From: Macrostomum lignano
Lineage: Eukaryota
Direction: 5' to 3'
Assembly: GCA_002269645.1 (NCBI GenBank)
Contig: NIVC01000322.1
Location: forward strand, 165,396-229,395
DNA length: 64,000 bases
Shown here piece by piece: positions 21,169 to 62,517 of the stretch (its first letter is position 1; the number at the start of each line of letters is the position of its first letter). Both the position numbers and the translations under genes were made by a program. The notes under the pieces were generated by a model that was not told where the DNA came from, did no database searches, and worked only from the letters and a program-made list of their open reading frames with translations.

Positions 21169-22751
21169 TTGATCGGGGGGCAACAAAATCAGCCATATAT
21201 TCTTCAGAACTGCAGTTAAATACATAGCAGTGAGAGGCTGCTCAGTGTGTACAGGTTGTGTGCAGGCGGAGGGAGCCGATGCACAGTTGAGTGAAATCTA
21301 TAAATAGCAATTTTCTATAGAGTCCGCCAGTCAGACAGCCAGGGTCAGAATGTGCACACGCAGCCACTGAGCATTTTCCTCTCCCTTGCACACAGCAGCA
21401 AGTATTGGGGCCTAAACAGTGAAGAGGGAAAAGTTGTGGCGCAATCATTTTTTAAATTGGAATTCAGCCAGTCAAGAATTCAACCTGGTTTGGTCTCCCA
21501 TTAAAAGCATTGGGAAAACTCGTTTTTTAAATATTTAATACCTTTAGCATTAAAGAAGTTTTAAATGGCTTTTTACCAGATAATTACAAAAATGTTTGCG
21601 AAAACGCCATCAAAATTGGTCAATCAGTTCAATCTCCAGAGCGTTACAGGAACACTCACACAAAGTCAGTTCGTGTAAAAGTCATACGAAGCAGCTATGA
21701 CATAATCAATTACTCAGGACTGTTTCACTTTGTTGTGATGCAATCTTTATCAGAATCAGAGTTTCAACCAGTCAGTTTTTTCTCTAGCATTCTCACAATG
21801 CATTTCAAGTCAAAAAGTCTGCTTGACCTTTGCAAAAAATCATGTTTTTCGAATATTTAATCCCCGTAGCATCGAGCAATTTCTTAGCCAAGACACATGT
21901 ACCGTCACGGGAAAGTTTCTGATCGAATGGTGCAAGTTTGAAGAAAATCGGTCAAGGCAAGCGAACTCTGATATCTTCATGGACAAGCAAGCAATCAAGC
22001 AAATAAAGGTCTCTCTCGGCCTGGCTGTACAGCTGAAAACGGACACGGTATCCAAGCCACACTTTCCTTTGGCTTTCAGTGCAGCTGCTCTCCTTCCTCT
22101 CCCCGTCTCTTTCTCTTGTTTGAGCAGCTCTGAGCAATACACAATGCGGCTGAAAGTGTTACTCAGCCCTACAGGCAATGCCAACCACTCCACTGCCAGA
22201 GTGTACATTGCTGCAATAGAGAGAGAGCTTTAATAGTATGGAATGAATGAATGCCCAGACGTCCGTCTTCAGTGTACACTGGGGCAAGATTATAAGTACA
22301 TGTACATGTACAAGTCATTAGGCTGGTGAATCAGTTACACTACAAGCAGGTTGAAACTGGATTATTTTACCAACAGGATTTGGTGCACATTTAGTATTTT
22401 AGCTCGTAACTTAATTTGAATATTGAATATATCGTGCTTTTAAAAAAAGTTATTATTGCCAATAAACACCTAAGAATTACAAGTACATTGCAAGGCTTGC
22501 TTACAACAAGGACTGCTCAAGTAGAAGGACGGAAAACTGCGTTTTTGGAAAAATTTAGGAGGCAGGTTTTACCGAAAAACCATTACGACAATACGGAGAA
22601 TGGAGGTTAATTGACTGCAGCATAATGCCAGCGTGAAGTGCCGTTGGCCCTCCTTTGATCCCCATAGTCCGAAGGAATTTTTCGTTGATTAATCGCTTCA
22701 CGCAATAGTTTGAGTGACTGAACAATCAGCCTGTACTGCGTGAAAGTGAAG

Positions 22752-23100
<349 letters not shown>

Positions 23101-23417
23101 ATAGAGATCAGATCCACAGACAACATTATAATGGAGCCCTTTTAAACATATCTGTATTCGAGCAGTTATTAATTATTATTCGGCATTTCTATTAGGATGA
23201 TCTTAAAGTCGAGCTGATTTGCCTACCGTTTCAGATGGTTGCATTGAGAAATTTAACAGACTACTTTATACAGGAGATTTTTTCATGAATAGTTATTCAC
23301 TTTTGGAAACTATTCAAAGTTATTGATAGTCACTTTCATAACGTTAGCAATGTAGTTTTAAGAATAAATTTCTTCATTCGACTCCTCTTGTCGGCTGGTA
23401 TCTGCAGTTTCTCAGAA

Positions 23418-36402: not shown

Positions 36403-39324
36403 TCACTCAGAGCTATCGCCAGCCGGTGGCACGAAGTTCCTGCTAGTAGTCCGCTCCTTGTTGAGCCTGAGCCACTCTCTGGCTCGGCGCTGACCCTCCT
36501 CCGAGGTGTCGCGGCTGTTGAAGGCGAACAGCGGGTCGGGGGTGCCGGGCGGCTCAGTGACGCTGTCCAAGTCTCGCTCTTCGATGCGCTGCGGCATGGG
36601 GGCCGGCGGAACCGGAGGGCGCGGCCGCTGGCTGTCGTGCAAGCGGATCTTGCTGAAGTAGCCGGGCGGTGGCCGCTCCTGGGGGGATTGCGGTTTGGGG
36701 GAATAAACCGGTGTCTAAAACAGGTGATAACCGGTGTCTAAAACAAATGATAACCGGTGTCTAAAACAGGTGATAACCGGTGTCTAAAACAAATGATAAC
36801 CGGTGTCTAAAACAGGTGATAACCGGTGTCTAATACAGGTAATAACCGGTGTTTAATACAGGTGATAACCGGTGTCTAATAGAGGTGATAACCGGTGTCT
36901 AATACAGGTAATAACCGGTGTTTAATACAAGTGATAACCGGTGTCTAATAAAGGTGATAACCGGTGTCTAAAACAGGTGATAACCGGTGTCTAAAACAAA
37001 TGATAACCGGTGTCTAAAACAGGTGATAACCGGTGTCTAATACAGGTAATAACCGGTGTTTAATACAGGTGATAACCGGTGTCTAATACAGGTGATAACC
37101 GGTGTCTAATACAGGTGATAACCGGTGTCTAAAACAGGTGATAACCGGTGTCTAATACAGGTAATAACCGGTGTTTAATACAGGTGATAACCGGTGTCTA
37201 ATACAGGTAATAACCGGTGTTTAATACAAGTGATAACCGGTGTCTAATAAAGGTGATAACCGGTGTCTAAAATAGGTGATAACCGGTGTCTAATACAGGT
37301 GATAACCGGTGTCTAATACAGGTGATAACCGGTGTCTAATACAGGTGATAACCGGTGTCTAATACATGTGATAACCGGTGTATAATACAGGTGATAACCG
37401 GTGTCTAATACAGGTGATAACCGGTGTCTAAAACAAATGATAACCGGTGTCTAAAACAGGTGATAACCGGTGTCTAATACAGGTAATAACCGGTGTCTAA
37501 TACAGGTGATAACCGGTGTCTAATACAGGTGATAACCGGTGTCTAATACAGGTGATAACCGGTGTCTAATACATGTGATAACCGGTGTATAATACAGGTG
37601 ATAACCGGTGTCTAATACAGGTGATAACCGGTGTCTAAAACAAATGATAACCGGTGTCTAAAACAGGTGATAACCGGTGTCTAATACAGGTAATAACCGG
37701 TGTTTAATACAGGTGATAACCGGTGTCTAATACAGGTGATAACCGGTGTCTAATACAGGTGATAACCGGTGTCTAATACAGGTGATAACCGGTGTCTAAT
37801 ACAGGTGATAACCGGTGTCTAATACATGTGATAACCGGTGTATAATACAGGTGATAACCGGTGTCTAATACAGGTGATAACCGGTGTCTAATACAGGTGA
37901 TAACCGGTGTCTAAAACAGGTGATAACCGGTATCTAAAACAGGTGACAGGACATAGCGGTCCGCACGATCACCTACCTGTCCCAGGTGCTGCCTCACGCA
38001 GTCATCAAACGGGCCCTGCTCCCGCCGGCAGTAGGCCGGACGGTTATAAGAGGTCGAGCGCTTCTCAAAGCAGTTCAAGTAGCGCTCGAACGGCAGGGCG
38101 CAGTGGCGCTTGATCTGGCGGAAGAACTCCAGGCCGCACTCGGTGACGGCCTTGCCCTCGGCCAGGCACTTGCGCGGGTCCTTTGAGTTGCATTTGGTAC
38201 ATAGAGTAGAATGATTGAGTATGTTAGGTAGATTAAGTAGTGTATATTGAGTAGAGCTAACTGAGTAGGGGTAGATTGAGTAGGGGTAGATTGAGTAGGG
38301 GTAGATTGAGTAGGGTAGATTGAGTTAGGGGTAGATTGAGTAGGGTAGATTGAGTAGGGTAGATTGAGTAAGGTAGATTGAGTAGGGTAGATTGAGTAGG
38401 GTAGATTGAGTAGGGGTAGATTGAGTAGGGGTAGATTGAGTAGGGTATATTGAGTAGAGTAGATTGAGTAGGGTAGATTGAGTAGGGGTAGATTGAGTAG
38501 GGGTAGATTGAGTAGGGTAGATTGAGTAGGGGTAGATTGAGTAGGGGTAGATTGAGTAGGGTAGATTGAGTAGGGGTAGATTGAGTAGGGTATATTGAGT
38601 AGGGTAGATTGAGTAGGGTAGATTGAGTAGGGGTAGATTGAGTAGGGGTATATTGAGTAGGGTAGATTGAGTAGGGTAGATTGAGTAGGGGTAGATTGAG
38701 TAGGGGTAGATTGAGTAGGGGTAGATTGAGTAGGGTAGATTGAGTAGGGGTAGATTGAGTAGGGTAGATTGAGTAGGGTAGATTTAGTAGGGTAGATTGA
38801 GTAGGGGTAGATTGAGTAGGGTAGATTGAGTAGGGGTAGATTGAGTAGGGTATATTGAGTAGGGTAGATTGAGTAAGGTAGATTGAGTAGGGTATATTGA
38901 GTAGGGTAGACTGAGTAGGGTAGATTGAGTAAGGGTAGATTGGGTAGGGTAGATTCAGTAGAGTAAGATTGGGTAGGGTAGATTGAGTATAGTAGATTGA
39001 GTAGAATCAGGTTGAGTAGGGTAGGTTGAGTAGGGGTATATTGAGTAGCGTAGAGATGAAGTAAGCATTGTAGAGTAGTATTGACTAAGTAGGCAAGGCA
39101 GAGTGGAACTATAAAATTACAAAAGTAGACAGACAGCCACAGTAGGGTGAGGCATTGCCTACCTTGAGCGTCTCCTGGTGGCACAGCATGAACTCCTTGC
39201 ACTGGTTGTCGCAGAAGCGGCCCAGCTGGTGCGCGGCGGCCAGCAGCGGCATGGTGGTGATGTTGAGCTCCGGCACCTCCAGCTCGGAGGCCGCCGGCAA
39301 CCAAACGTCGTTGCCAAGCACCAT
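36403..39324 (-). CDS. NDUFA8: NADH:ubiquinone oxidoreductase subunit A8
   Basis: Exons 39324-39163, 38180-37977, 36678-36403. LPAASELEV...AAAHQLGRFCD...KEFMLC...DPRKCLAEGKAVTECGLEFFRQIKRHC...ERP..GYFSK; twin CX9C pattern. Confidence 0.95.
36705..37945 (+). repeat. 23-bp minisatellite CAGGTGATAACCGGTGTCTAATA filling NDUFA8 intron 2
   Basis: Roughly 50 tandem units. Confidence 0.97.
38265..39050 (+). repeat. 14/15-bp minisatellite GAGTAGGG(G)TAGATT filling NDUFA8 intron 1
   Basis: Tandem array. Confidence 0.97.
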
Positions 39325-41054: not shown

Positions 41055-41519
41055 TCAAGCGTCTTGCATGAGCCAGCTCTCCTCAACAATAGCACGAACT
41101 TTCTTCTCATATTCCCGCTTATTCTCCTGGTAGAGAGTGGCGGCAACGTTATTGGCTGGTGAGTTCGGGTTCGGCTCGTCCAGCAGAGACTGAATGGAGG
41201 TGAGGATTGCTGACACATCGTAGGTGGGGCTCCACTTGCTCTGCAGAATGTCCAAACAGATACTGCCATCCGCGTACACATTGGGGTGGAACATTTTCGA
41301 TACGAATCTAACCGTAGGCGGCTTATTGGGATATTCCTCAGTGAACTCCATGGTCAGCTGGAAGGTGCCGTCCTCGAACGGGGTGTCCTGAGGACCGAAT
41401 ATGACGCAATTCCACTGCATAATATTGTCCTCCTTGGGTGCACCAGACACCCCGGCTGGAGGGTCCTCTTGGAGGCGCTTGAAATCTCGGATTAAACGAC
41501 GACGCGACGGGGTTGCCAT
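41055..41519 (-). CDS. UBE2A: Ubiquitin-conjugating enzyme E2 RAD6/UBE2A-B (154 aa, intronless)
   Basis: [21 protein letters not shown]...[17 protein letters not shown]...[18 protein letters not shown]; intact ORF. Confidence 0.98.
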
Positions 41520-43703: not shown

Positions 43704-44991
43704 TGAGGGGCACTAAAAAAGTTCTAAGCCTGACCAAGATCCCATGGTCACAAAGCACTGAAAATTGATCCTTTAACACAATATGTTGATAGTCTTTGAC
43801 AAAATTTTCAGCTCTCTAGGCATTACTAAAGTTTCATAGCACCTTAATATTTTCAGCTACCTATGGCAAATTCTCAAGAACTAAAAATGAAGTACAGGAT
43901 AGTGATCAAATTTCTGACCTTAAAGGGCTCAAAAGCTGCTGAAATCCAAAGTTGCATGGCTGCCATATATGCTAGGGCTACCCCTTCATATGCCACTGTC
44001 AAGCATTGGGCAGCCAAGTTCAAGCGTGGCCCCGACTCTCTCGAAGATGACCCTCGATGTGGGCGTCCCGGACTGCTGTTACTACTGACAACATCCAGCA
44101 CATCCAGGCCCTGGTTGATGGCAACTGGCGGATAAAGGTCAGGGAACTTGCGGCGGACACTGGGCTTTCTGACCCACAGGTCATTGAGATCCTGCACTAG
44201 CATCTTCATCTGTCAAAGGTCTCAGCCTGATGGATCCCACAAATCTTGACAAGCAACCAGAAGTCCGCATAGTTGCAGTATGTGAAGCTTGTCCTGCGAA
44301 CTTACAATCTAGATCCTGCCGGCTTTCTGTCTTGCTGTGTGACCAGTGATGAGACATGGATCCACCACCATGATCCTGAGTCAAAGGAGGAGTTGAAGCA
44401 ATGGCTGCCAATTGGTGTACCTGCACCACTGAAGGCACAGTCTAGATGCAGTGCAGGCAAGATTATGCTCACTATCTTTTGGGATGCCAAAGGCCCACTG
44501 CTACTAGACTTTTTGCCACACAAGCAGACAATCACAGGTGCCTACTATGCCAATCTAATTGCCCATATGCGCGAGGCAATCAAGGAGAATTGGTGGGGAA
44601 TGCTGAGCCGTGGTGTGGTGCTGCTGCACGACAATGCACCTGCCCACACCAGTGGGCTGGCAAAGGCAGCTGTCAATATTGCAGGGTTCCAAGAGCTGCT
44701 ACACCCTGCCTATTCACCAGACCTTGCCCCAAGTGACTTTTACCTTATTTCCGCATCTTAAGCCAGCACTCCGTGGGCAGCAATTTGACACTAATGAGGC
44801 ACTGAAGGATACTTCGACCTTCTGGTTCAAGGGGTACTCAAAGCAGTTCTTTCAGAGTAGCATCAAAGCACTGCAATCAAGATGTCACAAGTGCATTTTG
44901 GTCAAGGAAGACTATGTAGAAAAAACTGATTGCATTTGCCCCAATTCTCTTTTTTTCATACTGAGGCTCAGAACTTTTTTAGTGCCGCTTG
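43704..44991 (+). mobile_element. Mariner transposon (1288 bp), frameshifted DD34D transposase
   Basis: TIRs TGAGGGGCACTAAAAAAGTTCT / AGAACTTTTTTAGTGCCGCTTG, TA flanks. Transposase from 43863: HTH (LEDDPRCGRP), VTSDETWIHH, LHDNAPAH, YSPDLAPSDF. Confidence 0.95.
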
Positions 44992-45088
44992 TATCTTTTG
45001 TTCTGGTGATCCATTCCAAATAATTTCATTTTACATAGTTTTATAGTAGCAACTAGAGATACAACAAATATTTGGTTTCAATCCTTTG

Positions 45089-48100: not shown

Positions 48101-48869
48101 ATCAGTATACATTATATCTATTTACATATATCAACTAAACATGCTTATCATAATTAGCTAATACATGTACTCATGCTTATATCTTTTATGTCAAGATATA
48201 ATTTTGAACATAGTGTCAATGATAGTATTATACTTTCTAATAAAAATAATTTTACTATTATTAGGTATACAAAGTTCCCTAGAAATTAACCAAAGCTATA
48301 TCAAATTGAATACAATGGAAATGAAGGATTTTAGCTTTGTTAAAGTTTTAACAAAACATAAATTATGTGAGTTTAAAAAAAATAAATTGTTGCCAAAAAT
48401 TTAGCTATTCCTAATTTCTTTTTCTACATTAAGAATTTGAATTCATATTGCTACTATATGGTCTAGCTGCTATATAGACTGGGCTTTTTTCAGTTCTGAT
48501 GCATGACATTTTGCATCTTAGGTGTGCTAGAATACTATACATTGAGGAAGTTTCAATATACCAAAGACAATATATATAATTAGAAGTATATATTTGTATT
48601 ATATAAATTATGCGTGCTTGCTAATGTTTTCCCACCTTTGAGAAAATCTTATAACAGTTGAAGAACCTTGGTGCAATTCTACTCTACTGCAACCTATGCT
48701 TTCCATAGTTTTTTGTGGTCTTGTTGTATGTCTCAAGACAGCTAAATGAACTCTGTACAATTCTTCTACACTGCAACCCGTATCTTCATAGGTCTAAGCT
48801 CTGTGCATGCACGCTTGGTGACTTCTGCCACCAGTGTCCAGCACTTGCTGGCAAGAACCAGTCACACTG

Positions 48870-50542
48870 CAGTGTTGCCAATGCTACTGTACTCCAGTGA
48901 ATTTTAATTGCTGAGCAATTTTTTGTCATATTCAGCAATTTTCAGCGATTTTTTGTTCTAGGCATTAGAATTGTGGGATTCTGGGGGTAAGAACCGTGAG
49001 ATTCTGGGAGTAAGAATCGTGAGATTCTGATGGTAAGAATCGTGAGATTCTGATAGTAAGAATCGTGAGATTCTGATGGTAAGAATCTTGAGATTCTGGG
49101 AGTAAGAATCGTCAGATTCTAGGGTTAAGAATCGTTGGAGTCTGGGGGTAAGAATTGTGAGATTCTGGGTGTAAGAACCGTGAGATTCTGGGAGTAAGAA
49201 TCGTGAGATTCTGATGGTAAGAATCGTGGGATTCTGATGGTAAGAATCTTGAGATTCTGGGAGTAAGAATCGTCAGATTCTAGGGTTAATAATCATTGGA
49301 TTCTGGGGGTAAGAATTGTGAGATTCTAGGAGTAAGAATCGTGAGATTCTGATGGTAAGAATCTTGAGATTCTAGGAGTAAGAATCGTCAGATTCTAGGG
49401 TTAAGAATCGTTGGATTCTGGGGGTAAGAATTGTGAGATTCTGGGGGTAAGAATCTTGATATTCTGGGAGTAAGAATCGTGAGATTATAGGGGTAAGAAT
49501 CGTGAGATTCTGGGGGTAAGAATCTTGATATTCTGGGAGTAAGAATCGTCAGATTCTAGGGTTAAGAATCGTTGGATTCTGGGGATAAGAATTGTGAGAT
49601 TATGGGGGTAAAAATCGTGAGATTCTGGCAGTAAGAATCGTGAGATTATAGGGGTAAGAATCGTGAGATTCTGGGGGTAAGAATCTTGATATTCTGGGAG
49701 TAAGAATCGTCAGATTCTAGGGTTAAGAATCGTTGGATTCTGGGGGTAAGAATTGTGAGATTATGGGGGTAAAAATCGTGAGATTCTGGCAGTAAGAATC
49801 GTGAGATTATAGGGGTAAGAATCGTGAGATTCTTGGGGTAAGAATCTTGATATTCTGGGAGTAAGTATCGTGAGATTCTGGGAGTAAGAATCGTGAGATT
49901 CCAGGAGTAAGAATCGTGAGATTCTAGGGGTAAGAATCGTGAGATTCTGGGAGTAAGAATCGTGAGATTCTGGGAGTAAGAATCGTGAGATTCTAGGAGT
50001 AAGAATCGTGAGATTCTGGGAGTAGGAATCGTGAGATTCTGGGAGTAAGAATCGTGAGATTCTGGGAGTAAGAATCGTGAGATTCTGGGAGTAAGAATCG
50101 TGAGATTCTGGGAGTAAGAATCTTGATATTCTGGGAGTAAGAATCATGAGATTATAGGGGTAAGAATCGTGAGATTCTGGGGGTAAAAATCGTGAGATTC
50201 TGGCAGTAAGAATCGTGAGATTATAGGGGTAAGAATCGTGAGATTCTGGGGGTAAGAATCTTGATATTCTGGGAGTAAGTATCGTGAGATTCTGGGAGTA
50301 AGAATCGTGAGATTCCAGGAGTAAGAATCGTGAGATTCTAGGGGTAAGAATCGTGAGATTCTGGGAGTAAGAATCGTGAGATTCTGGGAGTAAGAATCGT
50401 GAGATTCTAGGAGTAAGAATCGTGAGATTCTAGGGGTAAGAGTCGTGAGATTCTAGGGGTAAGAATCGTGAGATTCTGGGGGTTAGAATCTTGAGATTCT
50501 GGGAGTAAGAATCGTGAGATTCTAGGGTCGGTGGCAACACTT
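48870..50542. mobile_element. hAT-like non-autonomous element carrying a 23-bp minisatellite
   Basis: Ends CAGTGTTGCCA / TGGCAACACTT; 8-bp flanks TCACACTG and CCACACTG (7/8 match); interior is GAGATTCTGGGAGTAAGAATCGT repeats (48975-50525). Confidence 0.8.
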
Positions 50543-51189
50543 CCACACTGGTCAGTTGCACCTTAGACAATTGACGAACTTGTAGCACGTCTCTTGATTC
50601 AGTGACTTTTATTGCAACTAAAACTGCTGAAAATCACTTTCATACATTCGAAAAATGCTTGTAGGATAGGTTGGTGTCCCGTAAATAATCACTCCACATC
50701 AGTAGTAATAGAAAATGATGCGCATACTCCAATTTTTTATTGCAAAAAAGTAGTAAGGTACCCGTCAGAAATCCTACTACGCACATACCACATTTTCCTA
50801 TTAAAAATTAAATAGTAAGGTACCAAACCAGCTGGGACAGGGTATTCTACAATAATCCTCACTACACAGTCTACACTGCCTGCACCCACAAAGAACAAAA
50901 GAAAAGATCTCAATAAATTGTGGGAGTCAAGTTCTAGCAGTCAATTTTCATGCTTCCCCCAAGCTACCAAAACGCAGTTCAGAACAGCGCACAGACAGCA
51001 AATAAAGTCAGTTTTTTACACTTGCTCCATAACACATTGTCTTCTCTATCCCCCAAACAGTGAATTCTAACTAAACAATCTACTGCACCGCACCCATAAA
51101 GAACGAAAGAAAAGACCACAATGTCGATCAACCAAGCTGGCCAAAAAATGTTTCTTGATATATTTCTGCATAACAATTGAATATAGGCA

Positions 51190-51747
51190 ACACATTGCAT
51201 TGTATTGCATTGCAAAGCATTGTAGGCAAAAATACGCACGCTGAAACTCATTTTCTCGACGATGCCCACAACCAAGAACACGCGTTAATAGAGAATCAGA
51301 GGGTACCACCATGAGTCAGTTTGAAATACAAAAAAACAACATCCGAATACCGCAATGACCAGTTCGATGGTCCTGAATAGCAAATTGGCTGTAGGTCCAA
51401 TTCTGAAAACCCCCACAATCCCGCCCCAACCACCGTCTAATATTTTCCAGGGGATTTCAACCAAGCGAATCAAAATACTCCCTAACTCTTCGTCCACTAC
51501 AACCCCCAACTCGCTTGCTACTCACCCAAACCACCACCCAATGCCTACCAGGAAGATACGAAGAAGTCTGTAATTGCCACAAAGAAATAGTCTCTACCAT
51601 CTAAAGGTAATTGTCTAAGAGCTCTCTTCGAATCCTGATGATACACACCTGAAAAGACAACACCAAGCAATCCCATATATAGATTTGTAATAATTGACCG
51701 CAAAATCTATCCCTGACACCCTGCAACATGTTCAGCTTCACTTCCAT
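51190..51747 (-). pseudogene. Adenain-type (adenoviral/Polinton) cysteine protease
   Basis: FSGVYHQD...FFVAITD, frameshift, PGRHWVVVW...EYFDSLG*NP...WTYSQFAIQDHRTGHCG..LFF. Catalytic H, D, Q, C motifs are in order; one frameshift and one stop. Confidence 0.9.
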
Positions 51748-52225
51748 GCTGTACCCGGCACGACGTCGCGAAGCTCCGTGATCTGCAGCTTCTTGTCAAA
51801 TAGACCGCCGAATATTACATTGTACTTACAGACAACGCTTGTTGCCTGAGCGAAGCGCAACTCCAACTTCACATTCCCTTCCTTATAAAGCTAAGCACTA
51901 TAATGCCCGACACCAGGCTCGCTTCCCAACGCAAACGCGAAAATCGAGTATCCATTGCCATAGTCCTCCATTGTGAAGCCAACGTCTCGTCCTTGCAGAT
52001 ACAACCCCAACTGCTGCAGCAGATTGGTATATTCTCTCACACAACTACCCGCACCAATTTTTTTGCAGCGGTCGCGAAGGGACAGACTCCCCGTTAACAA
52101 ACACAGCAATTCTGCTGAGACTTGCATGTTCCGCCTATTCAGACAGTTGAATGGGTGTGTATCCACTTCCATTGAAAACCTTGTTGTTCACGAAGGCTAC
52201 TAGAAGTAACCTCGGCACCTCGATC
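51738..52225 (-). pseudogene. Maverick/Polinton (adintovirus) major capsid protein, C-terminal part
   Basis: VPRLLLVAFVNNKVFNGS / HPFN...YTNLLQQLG...FTMEDYGNGYSIFAFAL...HYSA*LYKEGNVKLELRFAQA...NVIFGGLFDKKLQI; matches the Polinton MCP tail (G.TREDY.NGY.LFAFDL, GNL.LELKF). Confidence 0.88.
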
Positions 52226-52569
52226 ATTCTGCTGCTCGTTGCTGCTTGTTGGGAGCGTGGTTGTTGTTGTCAAAGCGTATCGTGGCAACGTTGGGTGTTG
52301 AAGTATGCAGAAATTAATTCATTCTCGTTGATGGCAGCAGCAGTAGTAGGCATTCTCGGTCTAGCCATTCTCACTTTTAGGCGCATTAAAGTTCGTAGTA
52401 GTAACTAAGGAGGACCCAGCTGTGTGAATAGGCGGTAAATCGAGTCGCGCAATTGAGCCAACAAGCCGCCAGGTGGCAACAGGCGCTACGCGTCACCACC
52501 ATCCTGGCCAGGTATAAACACCAAATAGTTGATCAGTCCTCGGTGAGCTGACTCGCGCAATTCAACCCT

Positions 52570-52899
52570 TCACCCATCAGGAGGATTGTTGGCAGCAGTT
52601 AGTTTGCGAATCGGCCCATCCAGTAGTTCAGGAACGGAACAGAATTGATACGTGTGAATGTGCAACTCCGCGCGAGAACGAAACATGCTCTTGCACACAA
52701 CACACCGTATTGAGGGCTGGAAAGGGAGATAAGTTTTATTAGCCAATGGTGTAGGCAGTAGTAATATTTTCCTATTAAGAGAATAGAATAAATAAATAAA
52801 CTTTTTTGTCAGCAGGGGGACGTCACTGCAAATAGTAGTAGAAGTAGTACTCGCGAACCCCAAACGCGAGGGCGTGTCTTTAATAATAGAGGGTGACAC
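52570..52899 (-). pseudogene. ORF with a C2H2/C2HC-type zinc finger (probably viral)
   Basis: CVVCKSMFRSRAELHIHTYQFC fits C-x2-C-x3-F-x5-L-x2-H-x4-C; same strand as its viral neighbours. Confidence 0.5.
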
Positions 52900-53419
52900 G
52901 ATTAACTTTAGTCGACTTTTAGCCCCTCGTTATTTTATTCATCAATCCGCGCGAGTTTGTAGATCCTATGTATGCAAATGGCTGTCGTCAGCACCTACAA
53001 AACGAGTGCCAACATGCACAACCAACAAAATAGATGGTGGTGGTGGTGCATCTCCAAGTAGCCGCAAGCGTCCTCACTTTCCTGTGGAAAATGCAATACT
53101 CCACTTGCATTGGCATTGGGTTTGTTGTTATCCTATGCACACCGTAATTCAACTAATGAATGCAAGCGCAGACCTCGTTATATTGGGTCAGAATCTAGCG
53201 CTCCTTTACTAGTCTGGTTGCATTTAAGGCACTGGCCAGGCGGGCCTGAATTGTTGTATGACCCAGAGTCGGCCTAGACACCCAGCTGTGGAAATAAAAA
53301 TCCACACAATGCAACTTCAAAGAGCTACTTGCCAATGGTCGAAAAAACCCCAGCCGTCAGTTTACACCAGACACCAGGATGGGCACGACCACACATTATT
53401 GCCGGCATAGAGACAAAAC

Positions 53420-53971
53420 CAAACCGTCGGCTGGCAAGCAAGTAAAACTCCTTCCACAACCGCATCAACAACAACGATTTTTAATAAATAGAATTAATCA
53501 TGTTGAAGAATGCTTGTCAGCAGGGGGACGTTATTCCAATAATAATAATAATAGATGGAAATACTCACGAACCTCAAACGTGGGGGGGGGCATGTTCAAT
53601 AGAGGGCCTCTGCCATAAGCGAGTTGAATGCGTGAGCAGACGCCATGGACCTTTCCATCACCAGAATTTCGTACTCCGGTTGATCCGGCTCCGGTGAGAG
53701 TAGCAATTCTCTCATGTTCTTGTCCCGGTGAAGCAGACAATGGCTCGCATGGATTTAAATGCCGATTGCTGATAGAGATCCTTGATAGAATTCCTCCAGC
53801 GAGTTCGTCTCTGCTGGCAGCTTCGGGTGTGAGGTGAACGCATGAACCGGCTCCTTGGCCCCAGAGAATCTGCGGTTCCCATTTCTCCAGTCGCGAGTTC
53901 AGGGCCAGATTTCTTAGAAGCGTTGTTTTGCCTACCGCTAGATTTCCCTCGAGAATGTAGGTCCGGGCCAT
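53420..53971 (-). pseudogene. Deoxynucleoside (thymidine) kinase, viral-type, disrupted
   Basis: YILEGNLAVGKTTLL P-loop, EP..W, NSLEEFYQG, ILVMERSMASAHAF, KIVVVDA; frameshifts and stops between motifs. Confidence 0.85.
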
Positions 53972-54032
53972 GGCTGGAATTTTTTGCTGATTGTGCTGCT
54001 TTTAGTAGCATGGCAAGCAGTGCATTAACGGA

Positions 54033-54587
54033 TCAAGTTAAGAGATTTACTTTGGTATCGTTTTTTGCTCCCATTGCGACAATTTTCCCAGTATGAAAGA
54101 CGTTGCAAAAGAGTCTTGGAGTTTTTGACTGTCTTGAACTGATTGCCTGCGGAAAAAAAACTTCTGCATCGTAGGTTGCCCTAAAGTCTCCATAGTTTGC
54201 GACACAGCTTTTTAAATAGTGGAAGATGTTTCTCCCAGGAAACTGAGCTTGACCAACCAATGTAGAAGTTTGAACGTGGACAGAATCGAAATCCAGTTTG
54301 TAAATAGTAATTTCGTTAACAAACTGTAAAATCGATGCCACGTCCGCATTCATATTGCGGCAAAAAATTGTCAGCCTTCCGTTGGGATAAAGCTGAATAG
54401 TTGAATCCACAAATTTAAATTTGCACACAGTAGGCCTCGCTTTAAAGACCTTGCACGAATATGACTTTCGAGCTAACGCTGCCTCATACAGAGCTTTTCT
54501 CCAGGAGAGATTTTTAGTGCGACACCAAAAATGAGAGGCACCAAGCGCTGAAAGAAGAAAAACAAAGGCTGAGTGGATTTCACCCAA
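54033..54587 (-). CDS. Divergent TATA-box-binding protein (TBP)-like ORF within the viral relic
   Basis: Repeat 2 FDSVHVQTSTLVGQAQFPGR...TYDAEVFFPQAI...PRLFCNVFHTGKIVAMGAK parallels TBP [20 protein letters not shown]...YEPELFPGLI...PRIVLLIFVSGKVVLTGAK. Repeat 1 is weaker (KVF...IQLYPNGRLTIF). The frame stays open upstream to ~54715 with no ATG. Confidence 0.8.
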   Translation of the reverse strand: MGEIHSAFVFLLSALGASHFWCRTKNLSWRKALYEAALARKSYSCKVFKARPTVCKFKFVDSTIQLYPNGRLTIFCRNMNADVASILQFVNEITIYKLDFDSVHVQTSTLVGQAQFPGRNIFHYLKSCVANYGDFRATYDAEVFFPQAISSRQSKTPRLFCNVFHTGKIVAMGAKNDTKVNLLT

Positions 54588-56515
54588 AATATAGAAATGT
54601 TCCTGGCGGAACCTGGGTAGCCAATGTATTTCGTATCCACAACCGTTTCTTTTAAATTGAATATCGATTTGGATTTAGAATTCGGATTTGGATTAGGATT
54701 TGGATTCAGTTGGCTTCAGAGTCGCTCGATGTGGACTGCTCCGCGGCGGCCGCGAGGTGATGTTGATATGCCAGGTCTTTAGAAGCCACCCGAGTTCCGC
54801 CAGTTGACGTTGAGATAGGTGACCCCGTAGAACTCACCAGTGCCTTGGCCGGGGACGGAACTTCAGCCGGGGCCAGCCGGTCGCTCTGTGTGGCTGCAGG
54901 CTTCGGTTTCTTGGGCGCAGGAGGCCGGCAAGGTGCCGCCAGCTTTTTTGGTGGTTGCTTTTTCTTGTAGCTAATGGTTCTAGCAAATACTACTTTTTCT
55001 CTGCTATTTTCTATAATCCTATATAGGCTGTAAGCAAACTAAGAGCAGAAGGAAAGACTCAGAGCCATAGTTATTAGGTGGAGCCAGAAATGAGGAAGCC
55101 CTACAAGTTAAAACCGATAGTGTTTGTTGATATAGAAGAAGACGAGGAGGTGTATATGCAGGCGTCGCAGTCCGCAGACACCCTCGCCGACGAGTAGAAA
55201 CACAAAATTCATTTTTCCTAATTCTTCCCAACTTTCAGTCACAACAACAGTTACAATGGAGTCAACGCCGATTAAAGCACCGCCATGCACGTCCCGCGCG
55301 GCAATTTTCACCGCGTTGACGCACTTCATACGTGATGAGTGGTGTCCGGCCCCCTCGGTTGCCGCGAATACGAGATTCAGTGAGCTGGCGAGTACGCGAC
55401 TGGCGACTGGCTGCCAAAGCCTTTATCCGTACATTTTGCAGCTGCACGTTTGCGTTGCATTTACTGCTTAATTAAAACGCAGTGTTTCCTGCCTTCCTTT
55501 AGCATCTGACTGTTGTATTCCAATCGATTAGAAGTGCTGTGTATCTATTCTAGTCTTTTTCTTCGTGAGAGGATGCTTTGTCTTTTAATCGCAAGCACAA
55601 CTGCACCACTATTCTATCGCGTGCAATTGCGTGGACAACTCTTGTGCATATGCTAACCACTATATAGACGGGACGTACATCTGCTTAGTAGCCTATTTTC
55701 AGTAGGCTGGACAACATTTTACGCCTAAATCCCCGAGATCTGTAGAGATTGTTGCATGGTGTGAGCTTTAAATAAATGAACAATTCTGGTGCACTTTCAA
55801 AACTCGAATGAATTTCATTAATAGTGTTCATTAATTACGTCTACATGCAAAGTACAAAAGTCATGTATGTGTAGTAAATGTGCTGTGGTAAATGTACCAG
55901 GTACATAGACGTCAAGGGAAGCAAATTTCTTATTCTTATTCTTAGGACTTAAAGTACTTCTTTAATGTACTTTGAAGTGGCCATGAAAATTTGCGCCAAA
56001 TGAATTGCAAATGCTCGTTTCAAACTGCTATATCTACATATATTGAAGTAGTGGTATTTTTACTAGTTTATAAATCGTATACTATTTCTTTAAAATAGTA
56101 TGTTTACGTACTTTCTTAAAAAATACTGTATTCAAATTCGCCGCCAAAGTTTTGTGTAAACTTTTGTCTTAAAAATACTCTATAGCTCGTAAGTGAGCAG
56201 AAACCGAGAAAACGAGAAAGCCTTTCAATTCAACAGTAATATTTTTCCAACTTTGGAAAGTTAACCAAATTCGATATTTGCAGTTTTAAAAGACTTTGTC
56301 ATTCCCTTAGAGACCCAACAAATGGGAGATTTACATATGTACATGTAAGAACCGTTTAGAAACGAGACTTAGTAGTCTGAAGTAGATCGCCTGACCCTCT
56401 GATCGCGGGAACGCACGGACTGAGAGAAATCCCTCTAGGAGTAAAATACGTGTAGAAATAAACAGGAATAGAATTCAGTGACATATAACCGCTCAGGCCA
56501 GTAAATAGTACATAC

Positions 56516-56758
56516 GGGAGCACGAGATTTTCCCGCGAGAGTTTCTCGCCGAGGTTTTCCCACGGGGTTTTTCCTGTGGGAATTTTAAGTCAAATCCTGT
56601 CTTATGGTCAATGCTGGACTAGATTAGAGCTAGTCTAGACTAGACATAAACTAGACTAGATTTCAAATCCGATTGGATTTGACTTAAAATTCCGACAAGA
56701 AAAACCCTACCGGAAAACCTCGGCTGGAAAACTTCTTGCGGGAAATTCTCATAGACCC
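56516..56758. mobile_element. 243-bp MITE, Mutator-like
   Basis: Imperfect TIRs of ~85 bp; ends GGGAGCACGAGA / CTCATAGACCC; perfect 9-bp duplication AGTACATAC. Confidence 0.85.
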
Positions 56759-57465: not shown

Positions 57466-57645
57466 CTTCTCACACATGAAAATCAATATTTTTACTCAAA
57501 ATGTTTTTACAATATGCATTAATGAGATTTACAATTTGGATTTTATATATTACATGTAAGTAAATATTTTGTGCAATACAGATTATACGAGGTGCACTAG
57601 AGGACACCTTAGAGGAAAAGTTATGACAAGATTTATGATACTCAG

Positions 57646-58945
57646 ACTCCTGCTCGCGCCTCTGGTGCTAAAGCCTCTGGTGCTAAAGCTCCTCGTGCTA
57701 AAGCCTCTGGTGCTAAAGGCCCTGGTGCTAAAGCCTCTGGTGCTAAAGCCCCTGGTGCTATAGCCCCTGGTGCTAAAGCCCCTGGTGCTGGCGCCCTGGT
57801 GCGAAGGCTCCTGGTGCTAAAGCCTCTGGTGCTAAAGCTCCTCGTGCTAAAGCCTCTGGTGCTAAAGGCCCTGGTGCTAAAGCCCCTGGTGCTAAAGCTT
57901 CTGATGCTAAAGCCCCTGGTGCTAAAACCCCTGGTGCTAAAGCCTCTGGTGCTAAAGCCCCTGGTGCTAAAGCCTCTGATGCTAAAGCCTCTGGTGCTAA
58001 AGCCTCTGGTGCTATGGCCCCTGGTGCTAAAGCCCCTGGTGCTGGCGCCCTGGTGCTAAAGCCCCTGGTGCTAAAGCCTCTGATGCTAAAGCCTCTGGTG
58101 CTAAAGCCTCTGGTGCTATGGCCCCTGGTGCTAAAGCCCCTGGTGCTAAAGCCTCTGGTGTTAAAGCCCCTGGTGCTAAAGCCCCTGGTGCTGGCGCCCT
58201 GGTGCGAAGGCTCCTGGTGCTAAAGCCCCTGGTGCTAAAGCCTCTTGTGCTAAAGCCTCTTGTGCTAAAGCCTCTTGTGCTAAAGCCCCTGGTGCTAAAG
58301 CCCCTGGTGCTGGCGCCCTGGTGCGAAGGCTCCTGGTGCTAAAGCCCCTGGTGCTAAAGGCTCTGGTGGTAAAGGCCCTGGTGCTAAAGCCCCTGGTGCT
58401 AAAGCCCCTGGTGCTAAAGCCCCTGGTGCTAAAGCTCCTCGTGCTAAAGCCTCTGGTGCTAAAGCCCCTGGTGCTAAAGCCTCTGATGCTAAAGCCTCTG
58501 GTGCTAAAGCCTCTTGTGCTATAGCCCCTGGTGCTAAAGCCCCTGGTGCTGGCGCCCTGGTGCGAAGGCTCCTGGTGCTAAAGCCCCTGGTGCTAAAGCC
58601 TCTGGTGTTAAAGCCCCTGGTGCTAAAGCTCCTCGTGCTAAAGCCTCTGGTGCTAAAGGCCCTGGTGCTAAAGCCCCTGGTGCTAAAGCCCCTGGTGCTA
58701 AAGCCCCTGGTGCTGGCGCCCTGGTGCGAAGGCTCCTGGTGCTAAAGCCCCTGGTGCTAAAGCCTCTGGTGTTAAAGCCTCTGGTGCTAAAGCTCCTCGT
58801 GCTAAAGCCTCTGGTGCTAAAGACCCTGGTGCTAAAGCCTCTGGTGCTAAAGCCCCTGGTGCTAAAGCTTCTGATGCTAAAGCCCCTGGTGCTAAAGCCC
58901 CTGGTGCTGGCGCTCTGGTGTAAAGGCTCCTGGTGCTAAAGCCCT
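57646..58945 (+). repeat. 15-bp tandem array CCTGGTGCTAAAGCC (reads PGAKA)
   Basis: About 85 units with higher-order structure; recurrent 14-bp units break the frame. Confidence 0.95.
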
Positions 58946-59642: not shown

Positions 59643-62517
59643 CAGTTTCCTAGCGAAGCAACGTCTTTCTACTCTAGTCGTCCATGAACGCATTTTTATC
59701 ATATATTTGAAGTACAAATATTGTTCACCTTTTCCGACGCGAAAGTTGCTACTCTGTTAACCTTGGTAGCCGTACATCTGCGAGCCCGATTGAGTAGCAT
59801 TACGATGTAGTGCAGACTGGATAGCGGAGCTGGCAAAGGACTCACTGTCGAGTATTCGAGAAGCATTCTGCAATTTAATATATTGCAGATTATAGTTCAG
59901 AAACATTAACGGCTGGTAGGCTACTTTGCCCCATTTGTCCTGCTCCCCAGAGCATTTACTTTATTCTTACAAGTACATACAGTACATACGATTGCTACAT
60001 TCAAAATACTTTAGCATGCACGAAAAATAACCGAACAAGACCCACCTGTAACGATTCCGACGCCATATGGCGATGCACTTGACATCCATCACTGCCACTC
60101 GCATGCTGAAGAGAGCAATCAACAGGTTCACCAGCACAATATTGACAACTATCAGGAATAGGAACACCAGGTATTTGCTGAACGCCACGAATCCCGAGCT
60201 GGCGGCGCACTCGAAATTGCCCGCCTGTCGCGTTTCATTGCAAGAGTCGAAATCAACCTTGCCAAAGTCGCCGAACATCAGGTGCATGGGAACAACGAAT
60301 ATGTGCTTGAAAATGGCGCGGGGCTGTCTGGTCACAGAGCTTGACATGATGGGGAAAAGCAGAGTAGTAAAAAATATCCCGAATGCGATAATGATGACGA
60401 AAGCGAAGTTAAAGAACGGCCAAAAGTCTTTGTAGAGCAGGCTGAGAAACATAGAGATCTTGGCCCCAGTGACTTTGAAGTAGTTGTAGAGGCTCACCAG
60501 GCGAAAGGCGCAGAACAGAAACGAGGCGCCCATTACGCTTTGACTGGCGTACAAAGCCTGCTCATTATGGCCGTACTGACCCAGCATTTTGAGCACAAGG
60601 CCGGTCCATATGAGCAGCAGGGCTATCAGGTCAACGTAAGCAAGCCCGAGAGTAAAGTTCCGACTAACTCTTCTGCTAGTGGTAAAGAACACCTCCCTTA
60701 GCTCGTGAATTGTCGCAAGCTGATTGAACCATTGCAGAGTGTGCGACGCGGCGCACAGACCCATAACTATGTCCACCTCCATGTGCTTCAGAGTTCGACC
60801 AAAGTCCATCAGGTACCATCCGAAGAAGCCGAGAAACAGGAACCAGTATACCGATGCGAGAATGAACTTTACCTGAATGGTGCAGCCACGCTTCGAGCAG
60901 CAGGGCGAAACTTCATTGCCACCCAGCCAACGGGGTTTGTCGCTGAAGTCGGCGTCGTCAGCCTCGTGTCTCCAAGGCAGCGGTGGCGGCAGCTTCCAGT
61001 ACTTCGACACCAGCTTGCTAATGCATTCAGTGCCAAAAAGCTCGACTGAATCAACAATGTCCACCAGCTCCATGGCCGATACGAACTCCAACTGGCTGTC
61101 GGCCGGTCTGCGACCTCTGGTGTTGAGACACTGCGGATTGAGAAACATCGGTCCTCTGACGCCGTTTGAGTCGATGAAACTCGCAGTCAAGTAGCCGAAG
61201 AGCAGCTGTCGTTCATTCTCCGACCCATTCGAGTACAGTGCTTCGAGCACGTTGACCAACACATTCAGAGCCTGAGTCTTGGCTCCGAGTAGCTGATCGA
61301 GCTTGCCTTGTCGCAGTTTAATTTTCAGTCTCAGCTGAATCAGCAAGTACAGCGTCTTTGGAATGATGTCGAATTGTGGCAGCATTGATAGTTCGGACAC
61401 TAAATTGGTTCTACTACAGAATATGGCAAAGTCAATTAGAGAAGGACTCTGGCTGTCGATTAGAATGGGTCGAATAGTCTCATTCGTGAGAAAATGTTCC
61501 AACGATCGACCATTGGTCAGCAGAGCAACCTGTAACTTGCTAATCACGCTTGGACTCATGTCTGCTGCGACAAACTCGCTAGCGATCAGATCACGAAGAA
61601 TCTCAGGTGAGTCCAGTTCCAGTGCTCGAAGAAGCCATCTCATTTGAGCCGATTGTTGAACGATTGAACTGGAATTTTGCCCATCATTTTTGGGTTTGAC
61701 TTCGTTGTTTCTGTCCAAGCTGGTTCCCACCATCTGACCATTGAAAAGAGACAGTCTGCTTAGAGCGACTGACTTCTCTGGAAGCGGCAGGCCACTCTCT
61801 AGAGGGTCAATTAACACTAGTAGGTCTCTGAGTTCCATTGAAGCGGATGCTGCTGCATTTATCAGTGCCTGCAGCTCTCCAGAGCAGCACGCCAGAGTGA
61901 CGCAATTTTGTCCGGAAGCTGTCTGAACGGTCAGGTCCAGACTCTGATCCAACAGAAACTTGATGTTCTTCTCGTGCCCTGCTTGACACGCCAGGTGAAG
62001 GCAGGTGGCTCCGCACAGGTCACCCCGAAGTCACGCAAAGATTCACCAAATCGTTAACGCTCAGTTCGCATAGCTGACTGAGCTCGGGCAGCAAATCCTC
62101 GAGTTGGTATCGACAGGCGAACACATGAACAGCATGAAGACCCTGTGAGTTGGTCTGGAGCGGGCCAAATGTCGGCTTCAAGTCGGACTGGGAAAGTCGG
62201 TGAAGAATCCGCTTCAATGCCTTCTGCTCCAGTTCGGTGCCGAGCAGGCAGTTCCTTAGACAGCCGTTTTCCTGACCGGGATCAACCCCAGCTTTGAGTA
62301 GACAGTGAACGGTGCTTGCAAACTTTTCTAAGTCGAAGTCATCGAAAGATTGATTAGATTGGAAGAGGGCGTGCAGCAGAGTGCTTTCACTGGGGTCGGT
62401 GACGGCTGCCCACTGTGAGAAATCTTTGCTCAACTTTTGCGTGTCAATCAAAGCGAAGTTCTTTGACTTGCATGCCTGGAACAGTTCTGCCGATCTGCGC
62501 TGAGACAACGCGTCCAT
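59174..62517 (-). CDS. TRP cation channel, ankyrin repeats plus TRPM-like transmembrane and C-terminal region
   Basis: Exons 62517-60046, 59867-59729, 59485-59174 with GT-AG junctions in phase. Ankyrin motifs TLLHALF, HAVHVFA, TCLHLACQAGHEKNIKFLL. Six TM-like segments, PMHLMFGD pore, NIVLVNLLIALF...IWRRNRYRMLLEY...PLPAP. One extra G at ~62022-62025 breaks the frame. Confidence 0.85.
59503..59643 (+). repeat. (TAG)n microsatellite in the last TRP intron
   Basis: Tandem array ending ~17 nt from the acceptor. Confidence 0.97.

Follow-up and report, generated by a model that had tools for sequence, protein, structure and literature searches.

A TBP-fold gene in Polintons of Macrostomum lignano, with a predicted splice-dependent start and candidate lineage-specific late-promoter boxes

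The Nucleocytoviricota and mirusviruses that carry a TATA-binding protein (TBP) are large viruses, and most of them have their own RNA polymerase. Their TBPs, such as the Heterosigma akashiwo virus TBP and the asfarvirus B263R-like proteins, are virus-borne, divergent forms of the fold, as is the protein described here (BFVD matches from E 2e-9). No polymerase or TFIIB gene was found in the 10-21 kb elements that were read; TFIIB matches lie on seven contigs, none of which is an element contig that was read. The late-factor cascades of baculoviruses and poxviruses also combine an early factor gene with a distinct short late-promoter motif, and the late motif of baculoviruses has a TAAG core. 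The A and B boxes described below share this core, but, unlike in those viruses, there is no viral polymerase here, and the TBP would redirect host Pol II.

The closest described elements are the Polintons (Mavericks), in particular the Alpha-type adintoviruses (Starrett et al. 2021, PMC8502044), which our elements resemble in the protein-primed PolB (pPolB), the rve integrase with a chromodomain, the A32-like ATPase, the protease, PLA2X, the terminal inverted repeats and the 6-bp target duplications. In the accessible parts of that paper (preprint 10.1101/697771), TBP occurs only as a label in the legend of Fig. 5, for MELD viruses in the section on non-animal datasets; no promoter box, splicing or function for it was found there, and one supplement had 0 TBP matches. 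This label was the only mention of a Polinton or Maverick TBP found in the literature, most subscription papers and Repbase lying outside the search, and no TBP or TATA terms were found in PMC11161782, 10.1101/2023.08.22.554363, 10.64898/2026.10.13.758929, 10.64898/2026.06.19.733378 or PMC11131425. The first-pass annotation of this locus, which did not know of TBP as a Polinton gene, was thus nearly right, the legend label being the exception. The literature searched held no account of how Polinton capsid and packaging genes are timed without an RNA polymerase. New here are the apparently splice-dependent design of the TBP and the presence of several TBP/box pairs in one genome.

The Polinton remnant and its TBP copy

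The window, i.e. the whole stretch of 64,000 nucleotides that was analysed, contains a deleted Polinton from 50701 to about 55280, which consists of the right terminus, the protease, the capsid end, the PolB start, the deoxynucleoside kinase (dNK), the TBP, part of an upstream gene and an inverted piece of the dUTPase (Table 1). An internal deletion joins the capsid remnant to the start of PolB; the window lacks the integrase, penton, ATPase and PLA2X genes and the larger part of PolB. We take the capsid gene to be that of the major capsid protein from its position and from Polinton motifs.

Table 1. Features of the Polinton remnant in the window
Feature	Position	Strand	Evidence
Right terminal inverted repeat region	50701..51105	-	blastn to both termini of the full copy C2529; element end at 50701, with the usual TACTACT
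Decayed maturation protease gene	51211..51747	-	tblastn, 53% to the C2529 protease; weak Peptidase_C5/C48 matches in relatives
Presumed major capsid protein, C-terminal remnant in two frames	51741..52260	-	comparison with C2529; no Pfam match
Protein-primed PolB, N-terminal remnant	52239..52731	-	tblastn, 79% to the C2529 PolB; full ORF matches DNA_pol_B_2, E 1e-20
Broken dNK, two frames, truncated	53605..53971	-	intact relatives match dNK, E 1e-20
TBP-fold exon, broken	53970..54547	-	frameshift near 54490 and, at 54033-54035, a premature stop; strand 1 not preceded by an ATG; fold from intact relatives
Predicted phase-0 GT-AG intron	54548..54837	-	donor at 54837; pyrimidine tract and acceptor ending at 54548; conservation 11/11 (donor) and 15/15 (acceptor)
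Upstream gene, 3' part; SSB-like by a weak lead	54709..54972	-	79% to C1090; basic linker and acidic tail; holds the predicted donor
Inverted dUTPase fragment, marking the rearranged left end	55087..55279	+	blastn/tblastn to full relatives

The full relatives in the genome are 15-22 kb long, have inverted repeats, and encode pPolB, an integrase with a chromodomain, an A32-like ATPase, PLA2X, dUTPase and dNK. In C2529 and C889, Pfam matches were obtained for PolB (E 1e-20), rve (E 3e-6) and A32 (E 2e-3), and weakly for the protease. The AGTAGT ends and 6-bp target duplications are exact in C2529, C889, C1975 and C114 and were also seen in C3727; the window retains the right end only. Candidate ORFs for the double jelly-roll major and minor capsid proteins, of 441 and 330 aa, stand in the expected positions of the relatives and have no Pfam match. 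The place of the TBP between an SSB-like gene and dNK/PolB is constant across the subfamilies. It is nearly certain that the TBP-carrying element belongs to the Polinton group, which agrees with the setting given in the first-pass annotation.

That annotation had described 54033-54715 as an uninterrupted TBP-like frame ending 62 bp upstream of the kinase ATG. Read as a single frame, the stretch contains stops. The minus-strand stop-to-stop frame has 213 codons (54033-54674), with its first ATG 107 codons in; it matches Pfam TBP with E 2.9e-4 and 21.0 bits, under the cut-off of 22.9, and the PDB TBPs (human TBP) with E 0.14 only. Comparison with the near copies C2529 and C1090 showed that repeat 1 begins (54547 to about 54488) in a different frame from the remainder, and that the stop listed in Table 1 is premature, the relatives running on through the last helix. 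The 213-codon frame was rejected as a real protein, since its residues 5' of about 54490 are not TBP; the reading of the TBP stretch as a chance ORF was also rejected. The 62-bp gap exists in the window because of the premature stop, and in the intact near copies the TBP frame continues over the kinase start. A TBP-like coding stretch on the minus strand is nevertheless borne out by the intact relatives, which exceed the Pfam cut-off and fold as TBP. The motifs reported for the C-terminal repeat, namely the Phe pair and GK.V..GAK, are present, together with a D-x-E stirrup. The N-terminal repeat is altered, as had been noted, but the F of its KVF is probably no equivalent of an intercalating Phe, because in the alignment of the relatives it falls, within an ambiguous stretch, on the Tyr that opens the first stirrup.

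The same remnant with its flanks (50400-56700 of the window) was found at two further loci, C48 and C102, with 93-94% identity, and their TBP copies are broken as well. The three homologous remnant loci parallel the host TBP and TRF2, each of which is present in three copies. The TBP gene of these Polintons is real and under selection, but the window copy is only its fossil and adds nothing functional. Elsewhere in the window, an intronless ORF for a ubiquitin-conjugating enzyme lies at 41055-41519 (-) (UQ_con, E 3e-55), and long intronless ORFs with several hydrophobic segments at 59967-61838 and 62020-62517 (-) look TRP-channel-like by eye, with no Pfam match at E 1. Decayed mariner-like transposase pieces were recognized by eye at 43863-45023 (+). 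Tandem arrays occupy 36590-38000, 48860-50520, 57540-58700 and 22590-23400, with units of 23, 23, 15 and 8 nt, respectively, and one of the 23-nt arrays sits just past the right end of the element.

The TBP family of the Polintons and its relatives

Of 104 candidates in the genome, 72 matched the window protein, and 48 of these are free of stops over at least 136 of 153 residues (by our own count, with frameshifts possible farther 5'). Six subfamilies of this lineage, here called A, have 33-93% identity to C2529. The dN/dS comparison across genomic copies that had been proposed in the first-pass annotation indicated purifying selection: the ratio was 0.17 at dS 1.24 between C2529 and C889, comparable to that of dNK (0.13-0.18), and 0.15-0.39 in the unsaturated between-subfamily pairs; the close pair C2529-C1090 gave 0.50 on few changes. 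Among 33 full-length lineage-A capsid matches, 25 share contig and strand with a TBP match (compared by eye), and of the remaining eight, three run up to the end of their contig and in three the left half is lost or disrupted.

Intact lineage-A copies matched Pfam TBP with 29.1 and 31.2 bits, and another copy with 21.2 bits. An AlphaFold model of the near copy C2529, made from eight element sequences only, had a pLDDT of 89 and two E-H-EEEE-H repeats. Foldseek with this model ranked TBPs first (E 2e-9), and the top five VIA-align matches were all TBP (Z 12.9-14.9, next non-TBP 7.7), the best with an rmsd of 2.6 over 168 residues. With this model, it is nearly certain that the lineage-A protein has the TBP fold, as the first-pass annotation had supposed.

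Like cellular TBP (PF00352; 7o4i_O, 1cdw and 5fur), the modelled element protein is a two-repeat saddle with a C-terminal Phe pair and an acidic stirrup; unlike it, the element protein is only 15-20% identical, and its gene lacks its own start codon and occurs in many copies on a mobile element. In the alignment, lineage A has lost Phe1, has Tyr for Phe2 and keeps Phe3 and Phe4, and the central Asn pair is replaced by Leu/Gln and Ser/Thr; the loss of both Asn and of the first Phe means that TATA binding may be weak or absent. The C-terminal Phe pair is retained in all 18 element rows, and the acidic C-terminal stirrup reads D-x-E in 8/8 A rows and E-x-E in 10/10 B/C rows (sequence only). TRF2/TLF (host paralogue L065) likewise has a divergent TBP fold with altered DNA-contact residues, but in the opposite way: in the host TRF2, three of the four Phe are gone and the Asn are retained.

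Host TBP and TRF2 are both present in the genome, with intronless core coding regions, and lineage-A TBP has 15-17% identity to them. In the trees, A and B/C were placed on long separate branches. The phylogenetic check against the host genes, also suggested earlier, rejected the grouping of A with host TBP (p-AU 1e-4) and with host TRF2 (p-AU 0.0095), and a single origin of the A, B/C and D TBPs had p-AU 0.26, the branches being long. The fasttree run omitted P rows outside 140-300 aa and two near-duplicates, and 45 rows picked by hand went into the IQ-TREE run.

All four Polinton lineages checked (A, B, C and D) carry a TBP. The lineage-B TBP reaches about 80 bits to Pfam, and the element also has PC4; lineage C lacks PolB and has TBP and PC4; lineage D, also without PolB, has a TBP with 22.6 bits and a capsid with 33% identity to that of A. 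The B and C TBPs start at their own ATG, without an upstream fusion. In B and C (L098, L104 and L197), besides the PC4-like gene, the TBP overlaps the end of an ORF that we take to be exonuclease-like. The lineage-D element C181 is a 10-kb Polinton without PolB that has a Fic-domain gene (E 7e-14; L212:921-1724). Within lineage A, a 15-kb high-copy subfamily (C753, C3727, C877 and about 25 more) retains TBP, dUTPase and the capsid block; dNK and the greater part of PolB are missing from the copies read, and a longer PolB was seen in C84. In subfamily A4 (C297, L110:3939-5345; C362), the TBP frame passes in frame into dNK to give a joint frame of 469-473 codons, and in subfamilies A1 and A2 the two genes share about 150 codons, read in different frames.

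Among 1.84 billion representatives, a profile search detected a few A-, B- and C-type relatives (including P0001-P0004, P0007, P0009 and P0011) and a group of short TBPs that share the first-repeat motif Y.GRP.ML of lineage A (P0032, P0041, P0055, P0077, P0091 and P0139). Word-index protein searches, a weak method, gave no match for the window frame or the longer fused forms, and no TBP relatives were found in the viral-contig scans or in one metagenome scan. A bacterial menaquinone locus, the one match of a further metagenome scan, was judged spurious. In the public gene models P0005, P0006, P0008 and P0012, pieces of element TBPs are joined to host domains of unrelated kind (Ig, ABC transporter), which means that databases mis-annotate these TBPs.

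The start-less TBP frame and predicted splicing

No ATG precedes strand 1 in the lineage-A TBP, and one subfamily has a stop codon directly before strand 1, with the first ATG 43 codons inside. A TBP made by splicing was predicted because the gene has no start codon. A pyrimidine tract and a YAG acceptor lie right before the first TBP codon in all of the 15 copies examined, and a phase-0 GTRAG donor occurs at a fixed position within the upstream protein in 11/11; given the codon usage of each ORF, the chance of donor-compatible codons in the six subfamilies is about 2e-5. The residues encoded ahead of the donor are similar to those with which lineage-B and host TBP begin. Lineage D has the same start-less layout of acceptor and donor in 4/4 copies, with introns of 67-196 nt. 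The putative TBP acceptor is well supported by this conservation, and expression of the lineage-A TBP very probably depends on splicing. An SSB-like-TBP fusion made by cis-splicing, as predicted from the sequences, has about an even chance, which we rate somewhat above that of a start supplied by the spliced leader; both can occur.

The RNA check was made on one related subfamily in three runs (X5-X7) from three studies, in the form of assembled contigs, which drop rare forms; the runs were taken as RNA only because GT-AG joints appear there and are absent from the control run X17. Intron 1 of the upstream gene was spliced in 3/3 runs, as was a leader intron, both joints being absent from the control. 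Neither the TBP intron nor the leader at the TBP acceptor was among the spliced joints listed in the three runs (assembled contigs), and one contig crosses the TBP intron unspliced. The four gene models found for the upstream gene all end in an unspliced tail. In run X7, the 3' end of the host spliced leader is joined at two other element acceptors, before the dUTPase and before the PolB remnant, which indicates that Polinton RNAs use host trans-splicing. The leader joints in the C753 element are near 384 and 1810 of L128.

The identity of the upstream gene as SSB is only a lead. The T7 gp2.5-like viral SSBs combine an OB fold with an acidic C-terminal tail; of these two, the tail is present by sequence in the upstream protein, which had an Atlas feature score of 0.93 to DUF2738/DUF5871 proteins of giant viruses (a cluster with 10% DUF2738). 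We take DUF2738 to be an SSB, and a literature search for a source equating the two found none. The upstream protein had no match in Pfam or PHROGs and no meaningful match in the PDB. The model of the lineage-D upstream protein was poor (pLDDT 34), this protein had no Atlas match, and the profile comparison of the A and D upstream genes gave 0.4%, so that homology was not found by profile.

Candidate promoter boxes and the proposed role of the element TBP

Two box motifs were picked by eye, and the shuffle tests therefore overstate their significance. The A-box TATAAG(C/T) occurs on the sense strand 6, 7, 10 and 5 times in four A elements (shuffle means 0.9-2.1), counts that were reached by 0, 0, 0 and 4 of 100 shuffles, and 0 and 1 times in B elements; the B-box (C/T)TTAAGAA occurs 7 and 7 times in B (0 of 100 shuffles) and 0-1 times in A. 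Copies kept out of the choice of motifs gave similar numbers, with 7 and 7 A-boxes in two A5 copies, all after PolB and mostly 46-97 nt before a start, and 8 and 7 B-boxes in two further B copies. The A-boxes of the first four elements lie downstream of PolB in 27 of 28 cases, and A-boxes precede dUTPase, PLA2X, penton and capsid-block genes. Only one of the 42 A-boxes (counted from lists) fits the canonical consensus TATATAAG. The canonical TATAWAWR (consensus as excerpted from PMC1935006) stands before the early gene in 12/13 elements (5/6 A, 4/4 B and 3/3 D), this gene being SSB-like in A and D and PC4 in B. The late box of lineage D is TATAAAT, in agreement with the canonical consensus. 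Lineage B has a B-box in front of its own TBP gene as well, contrary to what a simple early-to-late switch would give.

From these sequences, we lean towards an element-encoded late-promoter factor as the product of the TBP gene; a promoter factor was the first of the two roles inferred in the first-pass annotation, and the lineage-specific late boxes would fit it. Host TBP would read the canonical TATA box found before the early upstream gene. A single transcript that keeps the second intron gives the SSB-like protein with its acidic tail, as the gene models and RNA show, and joining of the conserved donor to the TBP acceptor is predicted to give the SSB-like-TBP fusion; alternatively, the host spliced leader ending in AUG is predicted to join the TBP acceptor in frame. 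The element TBP may then bind the non-canonical TATAAG(C/T) before the dUTPase, PLA2X, penton and capsid-block genes. If the N-terminal repeat of TBP reads the 3' half of the box, the altered repeat would face the non-canonical half. The element TBP would recruit host TFIIB and Pol II via the retained acidic stirrup; the C-terminal stirrup of TBP contacts TFIIB (PMC10005294, in excerpt). A complex prediction for the TBP with a piece of host TFIIB exon scored 0.00 and weighs neither way.

The late-factor role could also be filled by a free-standing TBP, if the leader were trans-spliced to the TBP acceptor, its AUG served as the start and the "donor" were conserved for protein reasons. The published leader of M. 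lignano ends in ATG (PMC8629364, in excerpt), leaders of flatworms are able to provide a start codon and to use the same acceptors as cis-splicing (PMC12582326, likewise in excerpt), the leader joints of run X7 are at two acceptors of the same element, and the TBP acceptor is in phase 0 in all six subfamilies, so that a leader AUG would be in frame. We nevertheless regard this reading as possible rather than probable: the joints listed include no leader at the TBP acceptor, the pre-donor residues resemble a TBP start, as mentioned above, and the presence of donor-type codons at a single position of the protein across six saturated subfamilies, as well as the 67-nt intron of lineage D, point to cis-splicing, although both routes may coexist. 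A different role, that of a decoy or inhibitor that no longer binds TATA and ties up host TFIIB or other partners of TBP while host TBP/TRF2 reads the late boxes, would accord with the loss of both Asn and the first Phe next to a kept TFIIB-side stirrup, with the canonical box of lineage D and with the presence of both host factors. It is weaker than the promoter-factor reading, and we consider it unlikely, as three of the four Phe positions are aromatic (Y, F, F), unlike in host TRF2, the A-boxes are almost all non-canonical, and the box type tracks the TBP lineage within one nucleus, a pattern that a shared host factor does not predict.

The position of the TBP within a replication block (SSB-like gene, dNK and PolB) could instead mean that the SSB-like-TBP fusion acts in replication or at the termini, by single-stranded DNA binding and a DNA-bending saddle, and not in promoter choice; a divergent Giardia TBP that has lost Phe residues prefers single-stranded DNA (excerpt of PMC12209930). 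Such a role is improbable, given that the B and C TBPs have no fusion, that C and D elements keep the TBP without a PolB, and that the SSB identity is itself only a lead. The broken window copy and the intronless cores of the host genes would suit a processed host TBP/TRF2 pseudogene that landed in the element by chance, but the probability of this is negligible: the low identity to both host genes, the synteny fixed in six subfamilies, the dN/dS of 0.17 and the AU tests all oppose it, and selection and synteny refute a host retro-pseudogene origin for the family.

As an extension of the late-promoter reading, we tentatively suggest that the TBP of each lineage may have co-evolved with its own late box and so insulate co-resident lineages, as a private transcription code without a polymerase, and that in two distant lineages one alternatively spliced gene may give both a replication SSB and an SSB-TBP fusion that would tie late activation to replicating single-stranded templates. 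The TBP together with a lineage-specific box is a concrete, testable gene switch for Polintons. Since at least four lineages with different TBPs and boxes are present in one genome, combining the TBP of one lineage with the promoter reporter of another would test specificity; transgenesis is available in M. lignano (PMC8629364, in excerpt), and the genome also offers recent, near-identical element copies. If TATAAG(C/T) or (C/T)TTAAGAA is read by these natural TBPs, they would show how the TBP saddle changes its specificity.
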